Below, in pieces: positions 30,580 through 33,132 of a stretch of DNA of 40,334 nt. The notes under the pieces were generated by a model. That model made no database searches, had not been told where the DNA came from, and worked only from the letters and a program-made list of their open reading frames with translations. Within the stretch, counting starts at the first letter, position 1. Each line of letters opens with the position of its first letter. The DNA comes from an uncultured bacterium (GTDB lineage: Bacteria > Hinthialibacterota > Hinthialibacteria > OLB16): the NCBI GenBank assembly GCA_964481775.1, contig CAYZUX010000023.1:1-40334 (forward strand), written 5' to 3'. Both the position numbers and the translations under genes were made by a program.

Positions 30580-31053
30580 ATGGTAGTTGCAATCAAAGTA
30601 CCAGACATGGGAACAACTGTGGATACAGTTATTTTAACAACCTGGCTGGTCAAAGAAGGCGAACATATTTCTCGTGGAGATCCAATTGCGGAAATTCAGA
30701 CTGATAAAGCGAATGTACAGCTTGAATCCGTTGCAGAAGGGATTCTCTTGAAGTGTATTGTGGAGGAGAATACAGAGCTTTCGGTAGGCCAAATTCTTGC
30801 CTACATTGGTTCGGCTGGGGAAATTATCGATGATGCGGCAATACCGGATTCCTCCTGTAATCCTGTTAAAAATGAGCAGTTTACTACAAGTCCAGAATCC
30901 TCATCGATAATATCAGTTCATGAAAACCCAACTGGTGAAGCTGCTGGTGATTCAGGTAAGTCTAATGACGGGAAAAAACGGGTCAAGGGTTCAACTCCGG
31001 TTTCGAAGATGGTCCGTAACCTGGCCCGGAAACACCAATTGGATTTGAATTAA
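30580..31053 (+). CDS. Lipoyl-domain protein with linker and the N-terminal half of a peripheral-subunit-binding domain (E2-like, lacking any catalytic acyltransferase domain); reads in frame into E1-alpha across a TAA
   Basis: The lipoyl-lysine motif is IAEIQTDKANVQLES within MVVAIKVPDMGTTVDTVILTTWLVKEGEHISRGD…. A Pro/Ser/Ala-rich linker follows, then GSTPVSKMVRNLARKHQLDLN-stop. The PSBD consensus (…RKLA.EHGIDLSQVKGTGPGGRITKEDV) continues directly after the stop as VRGTGKGGSITREDV in the same frame. Confidence 0.75.
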   Translation: MVVAIKVPDMGTTVDTVILTTWLVKEGEHISRGDPIAEIQTDKANVQLESVAEGILLKCIVEENTELSVGQILAYIGSAGEIIDDAAIPDSSCNPVKNEQFTTSPESSSIISVHENPTGEAAGDSGKSNDGKKRVKGSTPVSKMVRNLARKHQLDLN

Positions 31054-31098
31054 GTCCGGGGCACAGGGAAGGGCGGAAGCATTACTCGTGAGGATGTA

Positions 31099-32100
31099 AT
31101 GCGTTTGGTGAACTCCACATCACCTGTGACTCCCATACCTGATGAAAACGATCCTTCATTTCTACTTGATCTTTACCGGAAAATGCTTCTGATCCGAAGG
31201 TTTGAAGAGCGCGTCAAATACCTTTTCCTTGAAGGTATCATGCCGGGTACCATTCATCAGTATCAGGGTGAGGAGGCTGTGGCGGTAGGAGTATGTGCCA
31301 CACTTAACCGGGATGACATCATAACAAGCACGCACCGTCCGCATGGTCACGCAATAGCCAAGGGGATTCCCATCAATTCATTGCTCAATGAATTGTTCGG
31401 AAAGACAACGGGTTGTTGTCGTGGTAAGGGAGGTTCGATGCATGTGGGCGATCTGGAACTGGGCATGGTTCCTGCCATTGCCATTGTGGGTGGAAATGTC
31501 CCACTGGCAACAGGTTGTGCTCTTGCATTTAAGATGAGGGGAGAATCGAGGGTAGCGGTTTCCTTCATGGGCGACGGAGCCATTAATGAAGGTGCCTTTC
31601 ATGAGGGTGTGAACATGGGTGCTATCTGGTCACTTCCTGTAATCTACGTTATCGAAAATAACCTGTACTCAGCATCGACACCGATTGGGAGCACAGTTAA
31701 GTTGTCAAAACTCTCTGATCGGGCCTTAGGCTATGGAATCCCTGGTGTCACTATTGATGGAAATGATGTCATGGAGGTCTACCGTGCAAGCCGTGAAGCT
31801 GTGGACCGTGCTCGAAAGGGGAAAGGTCCTACGCTGATCGAAGCCATCACCTATCGAATAACTGGTCACTCACGACGCGATCCCTGTAATTACCAGCCGG
31901 AAGAAGAGCGCAATGAGGCGATAAAGAAAGAACCAATTGGGCGATTTGAAAAACACCTGATTGAAACTGGCCTTATCAACCGGGATCAACTGAACCAGAT
32001 TAGCAAGGAAATAGATTTAGAGATTGAAGAGGCTGTTCAGGAAGCCATAAATGGACCAGATCCAAAACCAGAAGACGCTTTACAAGATGTCTTTGTGTGA
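31099..32100 (+). CDS. TPP-dependent 2-oxoacid/acetoin dehydrogenase E1 component alpha subunit
   Basis: …LYRKMLLIRRFEERV…IHQYQGEEAVAVGVCATLNRDDIITSTHRPHGHAIAKG…. The TPP motif is GDGAINEGAFHEGVNMGAIWSLPVIYVIENNLY. It is in the same frame as the upstream lipoyl ORF, with a GAGGA RBS before the ATG at 31099. Confidence 0.85.
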   Translation: MRLVNSTSPVTPIPDENDPSFLLDLYRKMLLIRRFEERVKYLFLEGIMPGTIHQYQGEEAVAVGVCATLNRDDIITSTHRPHGHAIAKGIPINSLLNELFGKTTGCCRGKGGSMHVGDLELGMVPAIAIVGGNVPLATGCALAFKMRGESRVAVSFMGDGAINEGAFHEGVNMGAIWSLPVIYVIENNLYSASTPIGSTVKLSKLSDRALGYGIPGVTIDGNDVMEVYRASREAVDRARKGKGPTLIEAITYRITGHSRRDPCNYQPEEERNEAIKKEPIGRFEKHLIETGLINRDQLNQISKEIDLEIEEAVQEAINGPDPKPEDALQDVFV

Positions 32101-32115
32101 GAGAAGGAAAGAATT

Positions 32116-33132
32116 GTGTCAAAAAAATCGATTGCTGAAGCCTTGCGTGAAGGTTTGCGTGAAGAAATGTTACGCGATGAGAGGGTTTTCTGTATTGGTG
32201 AGGATATTGCCATCCCAGGCGGATGGGGAGGAGCCTTCACCGTTACCCTGGGTTTGGAAAGCGATTTTGCTGACCGGATGATTAATACACCCATATCAGA
32301 AAATGGTGCGTTTGGTGTGGCTTGTGGAGCAGCGATGATGGGGATGAGACCAATCGCCGATGTTCAATATGGGGATTTCCTGTTCTGCGCCATGGATCAG
32401 GTTGCCAACAACATTGCAAAATTACGATATATGTCTGGAGGCAAGCTCGAGGTCCCAATCGTCATGCGTGCACCTGTCGGAGCCACCGGACGCGGAGCAC
32501 AACACGCTCAGAATCTCGAATCTATCTTTCTCTCCATTCCCGGAATCAAAATAGTGTGTCCCGCGACTGCTTATGATGCCAAGGGCTTACTAAAAGCAGC
32601 TGTTCGTGATAATAATCCTGTTCTTATGTTTGAACATAAGTTACTTTATGGCTCAAAAGGGGCACGGGCTGAATCGGGCTCACTGGATGCATCCAGTGAA
32701 ATCCCGGATCATGATTATATTGTACCCATTGGCAAAGGTATTGTTCGACGGGAAGGCAGTGATGTGACCATTGTCGGGACCCTGTTGATGATGCATTACG
32801 CTTTGAACGCCGCGGAAGTACTTGCAGCTGAAGGAATAAGCGCGGAAGTTATCGATCCCAGATCCCTGAATCCTTTTGATTGGCCTATCCTGGAGAAATC
32901 GGTCAGGAAAACCACTCGGTTGGTGACCGTCGAGGAAGGTCCATGCTTTGGTGGAATTGGTGCGGAAATATCAGCAACTGTTTCCGAACGATTGGGGGAT
33001 TACCTGACTGCCCCGATTTCTCGTGTGGGTGCACCCAATATTCCCGTACCCTTTGCCCCCATCATGGAAAACTATTATCGTCCAGATGTAAATAAGATCA
33101 TTGAAACTGTCCGGCAAGTGTGTGATAATTGA
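32116..33132 (+). CDS. E1 component beta subunit (transketolase-like pyrimidine-binding and C-terminal domains)
   Basis: GTG start with a GAAGGAAAG RBS, 15 nt after the E1-alpha stop. Motifs include …VFCIGEDIAIPGGWGGAFTVTLGLESDFADRMINTPISENGAFGVACGAAMMGMRPIADVQYGDFL… and …HAQNLESIFLSIPGIKIVCPATAYDAKGLL…. Confidence 0.85.
   Translation: MSKKSIAEALREGLREEMLRDERVFCIGEDIAIPGGWGGAFTVTLGLESDFADRMINTPISENGAFGVACGAAMMGMRPIADVQYGDFLFCAMDQVANNIAKLRYMSGGKLEVPIVMRAPVGATGRGAQHAQNLESIFLSIPGIKIVCPATAYDAKGLLKAAVRDNNPVLMFEHKLLYGSKGARAESGSLDASSEIPDHDYIVPIGKGIVRREGSDVTIVGTLLMMHYALNAAEVLAAEGISAEVIDPRSLNPFDWPILEKSVRKTTRLVTVEEGPCFGGIGAEISATVSERLGDYLTAPISRVGAPNIPVPFAPIMENYYRPDVNKIIETVRQVCDN

Follow-up and report, generated by a model that had tools for sequence, protein, structure and literature searches.

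An E1 enzyme with its own lipoyl arm, encoded beside a microcompartment operon in a few Hydrogenedentota, is probably a cytosolic step of a RuBisCO-like-protein-linked sugar pathway

What are the genes for a TPP-dependent E1 enzyme and a lipoyl carrier doing directly 5' of the shell genes of a microcompartment (BMC) operon? The window analysed here, one entire contig of 40.3 kb (40,334 nucleotides) from an uncultured bacterium, presents such an arrangement, and a preliminary description placed the E1/lipoyl set in an unusual BMC module, where it would handle the BMC aldehyde or shuttle acyl groups or redox equivalents. We consider another reading probable: the enzyme would be the cytosolic TPP/lipoyl-dependent oxidative step of a sugar pathway linked to a RuBisCO-like protein (RLP), catalysed by an E1 that lacks an E2 core, is natively fused to lipoyl and PSBD domains, and stands beside a BMC in few Hydrogenedentota. 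The E1 part of the locus comprises:

30580..32100, plus strand: lipoyl–PSBD–E1-alpha fusion frame, 506 codons, interrupted by one in-frame TAA
30580..31053, plus strand: lipoyl-domain ORF, 157 aa, with the lipoyl domain, a long linker and the first PSBD helix
30991..31098, plus strand: PSBD, split by the stop (alignment with the PSBDs of relatives; PF02817 on the intact allele P0124)
31051..31053, plus strand: in-frame TAA; CAA (Gln158) in the sister strain L129
31099..32100, plus strand: E1-alpha part, 333 aa counted from the restart ATG; PF00676, E 1.6e-88
32116..33132, plus strand: E1-beta, 338 aa; PF02779 and PF02780

The lipoyl, E1-alpha and E1-beta reading frames that had been described directly upstream of the shell genes are real and their motifs are intact. 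PF00364 covers residues 4-76 of the 157-aa ORF (E 2.5e-18), with a TDKA motif at residues 41-44; its lysine, K43 (nt 30706-30708), is predicted from the Pfam match and the motif to be lipoylatable, and the TDK lysine is conserved in all aligned core-less homologues. E1-alpha retains the TPP motif (GDG158–NN188, nt 31570-31662) and the YRITGHS loop, and E1-beta the TPISE (E62) and QHAQ (H130) motifs. The closest solved structures are human PDH E1-alpha (1ni4, E 6e-59) for the alpha subunit and 1ik6, human PDHB and 1um9 for the beta subunit. Judged by these similarities, the pair is a TPP-dependent E1 of the heterotetramer type (alpha + beta), a predicted member of the pyruvate/acetoin/2-oxoacid dehydrogenase superfamily.

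Is the lipoyl carrier a protein of its own, with only part of a PSBD at its end, as first described? It is not. The lipoyl and E1-alpha ORFs share one reading frame, in which only the TAA at 31051-31053 and 15 sense codons separate them, and the 15 codons past the stop complete a canonical PSBD (…VRNLARKHQLDLN-stop-VRGTGKGGSITREDV-MRLV…). The segment STPVSKMVRNLARKHQLDLN-stop-VRGTGKGGSITREDV aligns with the PSBDs of six related loci (L001, L043, L048, L049, L062 and L066), and L043 encodes a 512-aa fusion with which the whole frame is colinear. The sister strain L129, which is 99.03% identical in nucleotide sequence over 10.8 kb and has an identical gene order, encodes an uninterrupted 506-aa lipoyl–PSBD–E1-alpha fusion (P0124); position 31051, T in the window and C in L129, is one of only 5 that differ within the 1521 nt. 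One stop codon thus divides what is a single fused gene for the lipoyl carrier and E1-alpha; the TAA is a nonsense allele that arose from CAA by one C-to-T change, a base-call error being less likely. Codon reassignment is excluded, since seven other window genes end normally at TAA; programmed read-through was likewise discarded, L129 having CAA. The products of this contig can be the 157-aa lipoyl protein and an E1-alpha able to restart 16 codons downstream, where a GAGGA sits 6 nt 5' of the restart ATG. Used alone as a query, the 157-aa protein retrieved itself and one 159-aa relative, in a homology search that is insensitive compared with those started from E1-alpha or E1-beta.

The nonsense allele could be a sign of gene decay in this strain. 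Taken further, with a contig that holds neither an E2 core nor an E3, it would turn the whole set into the non-functional remnant of an E2–E1-alpha–E1-beta operon that has shed its E2 core and then gained a stop within the PSBD. This is highly improbable: an intact allele, with only five nucleotide differences, exists in a 99%-identical strain, none of the catalytic motifs has been lost, nor has the lipoyl lysine, and the codons past the stop still spell out the rest of the PSBD. Core-less forms with a conserved lipoyl lysine also occur in many diverged lineages, and in two BMC-adjacent relatives, L018 and L065, the split is natural, with an 85-aa lipoyl protein that has no tail and a separate E1-alpha.

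Does the enzyme have partners nearby? Across the 40.3-kb window, none of the sizeable ORFs is identified by Pfam as a PF00198 E2 core, an E3, a PduL or an acetate kinase; tblastn with the E2 core of the family as query finds no match there, and the E2-core DHR motif (DHRxxDG) is absent from the window as well as from L129, L018, L065, L043, L062, L063 and L066. Motif scans of the window for E3, PduL and AckA return chance matches inside unrelated genes only. The earlier statement that the window has no E2 core or E3 is borne out, and the reported lack of PduL and AckA at the BMC locus extends to the entire window. The E3 disulfide motif was found in none of 129 loci scanned, those with a full E2 included, which suggests that this family normally relies on an E3 supplied in trans.

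An E1 without its own E2 core and E3 might simply be an ordinary pyruvate (or acetoin) dehydrogenase E1, which would use a housekeeping E2 and E3 encoded elsewhere to convert pyruvate from the DHAP branch of the sugar pathway to acetyl-CoA. The top NCBIfam matches are indeed PDH E1-alpha and PDH E1-beta, PDH E1s are the closest among solved structures, and the source annotations of homologues switch between PDH and acetoin oxidoreductase. E1-beta scores 339.6 bits with NF006667, the PDH E1-beta subfamily, over a cut-off of 321, while E1-alpha, at 351.5 bits, fails the PDH equivalog TIGR03182 (cut-off 393.85); with one subunit above its cut-off and the other just under, plain pyruvate is still allowed as a substrate. 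The likeness to PDH and branched-chain E1s (1ni4; Thermus thermophilus 1um9; Geobacillus 1w85) extends to PF00676, PF02779 and PF02780, which are common to both, and to the TPP motif, the GHS loop, the beta His/Glu motifs, the DKA-lysine lipoyl domain and the PSBD. However, in PDH complexes the lipoyl domain and PSBD reside on E2, whereas here both are fused to E1-alpha, an arrangement foreign to PDH architecture, and the acyltransferase core is missing. The orthologues are also persistently linked to the RLP, kinase and xylose-isomerase-like genes, and an E2 of their own is often encoded there too, a pattern unlike that of housekeeping PDH operons. On balance, an ordinary PDH or acetoin enzyme is unlikely.

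A precedent for joining a lipoyl domain to an E1 does exist, in PDH E1-beta proteins of the NF008854 (PRK11892) type, which carry an N-terminal lipoyl domain. The window's lipoyl part matches positions 1-118 of this 464-position model and E1-beta matches 139-463. In NF008854 the fusion is on the beta subunit, whereas here it is on alpha, includes a PSBD and comes without an E2 core; NF008854-type systems still have a normal E2.

If not to pyruvate oxidation, to what does the E1 belong? Its genes are preceded by four others, assigned by Pfam and NCBIfam:

25410-26369, plus strand: RpiR regulator
26425-27822, plus strand: RuBisCO-like protein (RLP)
27876-29378, plus strand: FGGY/rhamnulokinase-like kinase
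29410-30396, plus strand: xylose-isomerase-like TIM-barrel protein

The order RpiR – RLP – sugar kinase – xylose-isomerase-like protein – (E2 or lipoyl) – E1-alpha – E1-beta recurs on many contigs that have no BMC. Some of these modules have a full E2 (L048, L049, L057, L064, L069 and others); in others (L043, L130/L131, L133/L134) a compact RLP – xylose-isomerase-like – lipoyl-PSBD-E1-alpha – E1-beta set stands without shell genes. Among the 31 loci from the E1-beta scan whose upstream sequence spans 6 kb or more, 13 have RLP adjoining E1. Of the 120 best E1-alpha homologues, about 27 are fusions of lipoyl (with or without PSBD) to E1-alpha; among the 50%-identity representatives, the best are 451-471 aa long with the E1 domain beginning at about residue 140-153. 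Within the module family, repeated loss of the E2 core seems to have produced the core-less forms, which recur across many diverged lineages and comprise short carriers, fusions to E1-alpha and triple fusions; the E1-beta tree for this family is a rough NJ one, and ORFs in related loci were called by homology anchoring. By gene order and distribution, the E1 genes come last in a separate, conserved RLP–kinase–isomerase–(E2/lipoyl)–E1 operon that is widespread without a BMC. The preliminary description had named, as the case that would undo its proposal, a PDH or acetoin operon merely abutting the BMC; a separate operon does abut it, but one unlike the ordinary operons for PDH or acetoin dehydrogenase. 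Our search of the literature for RLP/E1 clusters, lipoyl–E1-alpha fusions and Hydrogenedentota BMCs returned nothing relevant, and we found no published description.

How close, then, is the tie to the microcompartment? The shell genes open an operon of their own:

33176..37824, plus strand: BMC operon, outside the E1 module (Pfam, NCBIfam)

Its order is BMC-Tdp (CcmP-like), BMC-H, BMC-P, acylating AldDH, tandem BMC-T, BMC-P, BMC-P and class II aldolase, and about 20 Hydrogenedentota loci share this core. The end of E1-beta lies 43 bp from the first shell gene, and gaps of 13-43 bp between module and shell are found in two diverged Hydrogenedentota sub-lineages (the window and L129; L018 and L065) whose AldDH proteins are 63-65% identical; since the adjacency is kept in both, co-regulation is plausible. 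From RpiR through to the aldolase, the intergenic stretches have no plus-strand terminator-like site; the single one in the span (34465) lies within the AldDH gene, in a promoter/terminator scan whose counts do not exceed those in shuffled sequence. The E1 module is probably co-transcribed with the BMC operon.

This tight, conserved spacing and the missing E2 core in every BMC-adjacent copy could mark a functional coupling. In its fullest form, such coupling would make the E2-less E1/lipoyl set an integral part of the BMC, either cleaving or ligating a 2-hydroxy-ketone related to the BMC aldehyde or serving as an acyl or redox carrier in place of the missing recycling by PduL/AckA and an alcohol dehydrogenase, and the BMC type does lack PduL and AckA in its locus. 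The neighbourhood search for E1/lipoyl genes beside shell genes, which the preliminary description had called for, was run, and the adjacency is rare in both directions. The module is present in only 1 of the 14 same-type Hydrogenedentota BMC loci that have at least 4.5 kb of upstream sequence; the other 13 mostly have a class-IV aminotransferase upstream, and others have polysaccharide-use genes. Conversely, where 1 kb or more of downstream sequence is available, only 1 of 61 E1-beta relatives directly abuts shell genes, and several E2-less modules (L043, L062, L063, L130 and L133) are free of shell genes for 10 kb around. The module-less BMC loci also lack PduL; thus, the module fills no type-wide gap. 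A PduL hidden in the 0.6-0.9 kb gap between the first BMC-P and AldDH of several related BMC loci was considered and rejected: the ORFs there are Rce1-like or have no Pfam match, and therefore PduL and E1 do not complement each other.

The class II aldolase of the BMC operon carries a conserved C-terminal encapsulation-type helix. In contrast, neither E1 nor the lipoyl part, compared with BMC-free orthologues, has an encapsulation-peptide-like extension: the fusion is 506 aa long vs 499-512 aa in BMC-free loci, and E1-beta 338 aa vs 335-339 aa. The C-terminal helix of the 157-aa protein, a candidate for such a peptide, is PSBD helix 1. Lack of a recognisable encapsulation peptide is not proof of a cytosolic enzyme; the sequences nevertheless suggest that E1 is most likely cytosolic and not BMC cargo. 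Integration into the BMC is, overall, distinctly unlikely, and the roles proposed for E1/lipoyl in aldehyde handling or in acyl or redox shuttling find no support in its rarity beside shell genes, its BMC-free operons and its unextended termini.

The consulted portions of the BMC catalogue text and Pfam tables do not list an E1/lipoyl module; of related entries they list only a Transketolase_C model, tied to EUT1 loci, and FRAG6/FRAG7 types for Hydrogenedentes. To this extent the module is indeed unusual, as claimed; its membership in the BMC is the part that finds no support, and the E1/lipoyl set, which neighbours a BMC in a few lineages only, is not specific to BMCs. The adjacent operon shares a class II aldolase, an acylating AldDH and three BMC-P genes with PVM metabolosomes, in which a class II aldolase serves fucose/rhamnose use (PMC4207490). 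It differs from them, as far as their composition is given in PMC4207490 and the portions of the PMC8217296 supplement consulted, in lacking PTAC (PF06130), acetate kinase and a lactate/malate-dehydrogenase-type reductase. Its shell has one BMC-H, a BMC-Tdp and a tandem BMC-T, unlike the two BMC-H plus three BMC-P of the PVM shell in those portions of the supplement, whose PVM component lists have no E1 module.

In the RLP-linked sugar pathway that we favour, the E1 enzyme would catalyse the last step of a sugar-catabolic module. The kinase, the isomerase and RLP would together yield a ketol or 2-oxo sugar-phosphate derivative, which E1 would cleave or decarboxylate on TPP, reductively acylating its own lipoyl arm. 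The arm would be re-oxidised by the housekeeping E3, encoded elsewhere and recruited via the PSBD; the acyl group may leave (i) through an E2 core provided in trans or (ii) by hydrolysis.

Acetoin dehydrogenase (AcoA/AcoB/AcoC/AcoL) offers a chemical model, with an E1 alpha/beta pair of the same superfamily: its substrate is a ketol, not an acid, and the cleavage frees an aldehyde. By analogy, acetoin-type cleavage would be a chemistry that fits an RLP-derived ketol, and some homologues carry the JGI annotation acetoin:DCPIP oxidoreductase alpha. Unlike the acetoin system, the window has no AcoC-type E2 and no AcoL, and NF011457 covers the lipoyl part only (63 bits vs a cut-off of 307). A more specific version, which we put forward as tentative, makes lipoyl–PSBD–E1-alpha/E1-beta the C–C-cleaving step of an undescribed RLP-dependent sugar pathway, beside an aldolase/aldehyde branch handled by the BMC. 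Here, the kinase and the xylose-isomerase-like enzyme would produce a (deoxy)ketose phosphate, RLP would shift its carbonyl or enolise it to give an acetoin-like ketol, and E1 would split this ketol oxidatively, giving an acyl-lipoyl thioester plus an aldose phosphate. If true, ketols would be cleaved without a dedicated E2 core and without a free aldehyde, and Hydrogenedentota would co-express the pathway with a BMC for the parallel aldolase/aldehyde branch.

For BMC biology the outcome is chiefly a correction, namely that these E1/lipoyl genes do not qualify as a new module for cofactor recycling in BMCs. What emerges is a large, environmentally widespread E1 family that is genetically tied to RLP and that, in many lineages, has its own lipoyl arm and predicted E3-docking domain and no acyltransferase. 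The RLP field gains a concrete candidate for a partner enzyme, and the 2-oxoacid-dehydrogenase field a natural case of a system without an E2 core. Finally, the fused and split alleles of two near-identical strains provide a natural comparison of tethered and free lipoyl domains.

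The three ORFs that the preliminary description placed at the head of a bacterial microcompartment (BMC) operon are present, with their motifs; the E1 motifs are assigned by analogy with PDH E1. They follow, on the same strand, genes for an RpiR regulator, a RuBisCO-like protein (RLP), a rhamnulokinase-like FGGY kinase and a xylose-isomerase-like TIM-barrel protein:

26425-27822, +, RLP; closest solved structure DK-MTP-1-P enolase 2oek, under every NCBIfam cut-off
29410-30396, +, TIM-barrel protein; closest solved structure 3ktc
30580-31053, +, lipoyl-domain ORF, 157 aa; PF00364 at residues 4-76 (E 2.5e-18), TDKA at 41-44
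31099-32100, +, E1-alpha, 333 aa; PF00676 (E 1.6e-88), GDG158…NN188, YRITGHS loop
32116-33132, +, E1-beta, 338 aa; PF02779/PF02780, TPISE and QHAQ motifs

The BMC operon begins 43 bp after E1-beta and encodes, in order, a CcmP-like BMC-Tdp, BMC-H, BMC-P, an acylating AldDH, a tandem BMC-T, two BMC-P and a class II aldolase. The remaining sizeable ORFs serve polysaccharide use or encode a transporter, an RND efflux pair or a sigma-54 activator; no E2 core, E3, PduL or acetate kinase occurs among the sizeable ORFs of the window, a complete 40,334-bp contig. An L-fucose-isomerase-family protein (16409-17797, -) has sulfoquinovose isomerase SftI as its top NCBIfam match (91 vs. a cut-off of 700 bits) and glycoside-hydrolase-like, beta-helix and sodium:solute symporter genes as neighbors. 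GC content is ~0.52-0.545 at 1-8000 (RND efflux pump, sigma-54 activator) vs. 0.38-0.45 at 16000-24000 (polysaccharide-use region), a contrast that may reflect mosaic origin.

Is the lipoyl carrier a protein of its own? The lipoyl and E1-alpha ORFs lie in one frame, separated only by a TAA (31051-31053) and 15 sense codons; read-through translation (…STPVSKMVRNLARKHQLDLN-stop-VRGTGKGGSITREDV-MRLVN…DPSFLLDLYRKML…) yields a whole peripheral-subunit-binding domain (PSBD) leading directly into E1-alpha, colinear with a 512-aa lipoyl–PSBD–E1-alpha protein of a BMC-free relative (L043), whose E1-beta is the top non-self match in the protein search (79% identical). An E1-alpha search found the uninterrupted form, P0124 (506 aa, E1 part 100% identical to that of the window), on a sister-strain contig (L129) from an independent run (ERR14964774). 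This contig is 99.03% identical to window 27075-37875 (102 mismatches), and matches it gene for gene up to and including the BMC; five differences fall inside the 1521-nt fusion gene, and position 31051 is T in the window and C in L129 (CAA, Gln158). Since this allele is intact and TAA terminates other genes of the window in the usual way, the native product of the lineage is a lipoyl–PSBD–E1-alpha fusion; the window copy is a nonsense allele or, less likely, contains a base error. A JGI contig (L002), 100% identical, has the same TAA and may derive from the same sample. Thus, the E1/lipoyl observation was real, but the parse as a stand-alone carrier ending in a partial PSBD was wrong: the carrier is half of one fusion gene, and its PSBD is completed past the TAA. 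The split form may still work, because a separate 85-aa lipoyl protein and E1-alpha are the natural state in two BMC-adjacent relatives (L018, L065); translation could resume at ATG 31099, 6 nt after a GAGGA, and would then produce full E1-alpha.

Lipoyl-module architectures in the E1 family (Lip, lipoyl domain):
Full E2 with DHR catalytic motif, 346-451 aa, ~24 loci
Lip–PSBD alone, 156-173 aa, ~7 loci
Lip alone, 81-139 aa, ~7 loci, both other BMC-adjacent loci among them
Lip(–PSBD) fused to E1-alpha, 410-512 aa, ~13 loci in the first set, plus L129 and L130-L134
Lip–E1-alpha–E1-beta triple fusion, 777 aa, ~3 loci

The triple-fusion ORF, the most extreme of the five, occurs in L113, L116 and L117 (e.g., L116:8693-11026). 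The lipoyl lysine is kept in every aligned core-less form. Full-E2 operons are ordered E2–E1-alpha–E1-beta, and the alignment suggests that one deletion, taking out the E2 catalytic domain together with the spacer that follows it, would produce the Lip–PSBD–E1-alpha fusion directly; the scatter of core-less forms on a rough NJ tree suggests that the E2 core was lost repeatedly. A motif scan detected the E3 disulfide motif in none of 129 loci, full-E2 loci included, which argues that E3 acting in trans is normal for this family and that its absence from the window is nothing special.

The family is large (7,994 E1-beta homologs at E ≤ 1e-30, the best 120 being 73-80% identical; at least 575 of 600 metagenome stretches confirmed) and has an operon of its own, RpiR – RLP – FGGY (or PfkB) – xylose-isomerase-like – (E2 or Lip) – E1-alpha – E1-beta, which at times adds RhaM, SDR, amidohydrolases or a class-III aminotransferase and recurs in contexts without shell genes. 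Among the matches listed, 31 loci extend at least 6 kb upstream, and 13 of these contain RLP. RLP and the TIM protein are persistently tied to the E1 family on many BMC-free contigs; a literature search found no paper on the function of this E1-linked pair.

Is the module, then, part of the BMC? Scanning a genome collection with the first shell protein gave 40 loci, the nearest of which (75-95% identity) are nearly all from Candidatus Hydrogenedentota MAGs; ~20 Hydrogenedentota loci keep the Tdp–H–P–AldDH–T–P–P–aldolase core. The RpiR–RLP–FGGY–XI–Lip–E1-alpha–E1-beta block accompanies one of 14 same-type loci with at least 4.5 kb upstream (L018), so the E1 module is not a component of this BMC type; most others have a class-IV aminotransferase upstream, and the nearest relative, L003 (Tdp 95%, AldDH 86%), has sulfatase, beta-helix and LacI genes instead. 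Conversely, among the matches listed, 61 loci reach at least 1 kb downstream of E1-beta, and BMC genes abut it in one of them (L065). The proposed BMC module is largely unsupported. PduL is absent from all same-type loci examined, and the ORFs in the BMC-P/AldDH gap of relatives are Rce1-like or unknown; the BMC type as such has no PTAC, and the E1 module does not specifically fill that gap. Many Hydrogenedentota BMC loci have, after the aldolase, two conserved Pfam-less proteins (~355 and ~235 aa; L007:16579-17646 and L007:17791-18498, also in L010, L011, L014, L016, L017, L020 and L021). These are candidates for core functions that are missing from this PduL-less BMC, and they do not occur in the window, L129, L003 or L018.

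The class II aldolase (37060-37824, +) ends, after a Cys-containing linker, in a conserved amphipathic helix, LDxIIE(D/E)TLRxLG (~37740-37821, SDLDNIIEDTLRILGGG), which every Hydrogenedentota BMC locus has and non-BMC aldolases lack; it is probably an encapsulation peptide. The E1 proteins have no terminal extension relative to BMC-free orthologs: the fusion measures 506 vs. 499-512 aa and E1-beta 338 vs. 335-339 aa, and the sole tail-like helix of the 157-aa lipoyl protein is PSBD helix 1. Nothing in these features marks E1 or the lipoyl part as BMC cargo, although piggy-back encapsulation would be compatible with them. The AldDH N-terminus is Cys-rich and non-helical in the window (34417-34540, +; …CSPSVSSEGPCFPC…), L129 and L003 and an amphipathic helix (DIEQAVREVLKRI-like) in L018, L065, L011, L012 and L021, so the targeting signal appears to vary within one BMC type. 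A terminator scan saw no terminator-like site between genes from the module through the BMC operon; the two probably form a single sugar-use island, transcribed together under RpiR control. A promoter-like site with an extended -10 (33101-33129, +), at the extreme end of E1-beta ahead of the first shell gene, may be due to chance, such sites being not enriched vs. shuffled sequence.

What might the enzyme do? By its motifs, it would retain everything needed for TPP-dependent enamine formation and then reductive transfer to the lipoyl arm. PSBD retention in most core-less forms argues for E3 docking and hence a real redox cycle, and because about half of the family has its own E2, the ancestral product was arguably an acyl-CoA; core-less forms would have to release the acyl group via an in-trans E2 core or hydrolysis. 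Pyruvate as the substrate would fit NCBIfam scores near PDH cut-offs, but the company of RLP, a sugar kinase and an isomerase/epimerase-type TIM barrel, to which E1 is tightly linked, favors a ketol or oxo-acid derived from a sugar phosphate over housekeeping pyruvate. In L133 (5304-8201, -) and L134, LutABC-like lactate-utilization genes (LUD_dom, CCG) diverge from an adjoining RLP – XI-like – Lip-PSBD-E1-alpha – E1-beta module; with such neighbors, the product may be lactate or a lactyl group.

Lipoyl, pyruvate dehydrogenase and acetoin are unmentioned in the 2014 locus taxonomy (PMC4207490) and in the main text of the 2021 catalog (PMC8217296), whose Pfam table lacks PF00676, PF02779 and PF00364 and offers no more than a Transketolase_C model, tied to EUT1. 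For Hydrogenedentes the catalog lists FRAG6 and FRAG7; the PVM shell it describes, with two BMC-H and three BMC-P, differs from that of the window. Literature searches for an RLP–E1 cluster or lipoyl–E1-alpha fusions yielded no paper; a known lipoyl–E1-beta fusion (NCBIfam NF008854) is a partial precedent. The observation comes down to an E1 that is fused to a lipoyl domain, has no E2 core and belongs to an uncharacterized RLP-linked pathway; in a few Hydrogenedentota it lies beside a BMC.
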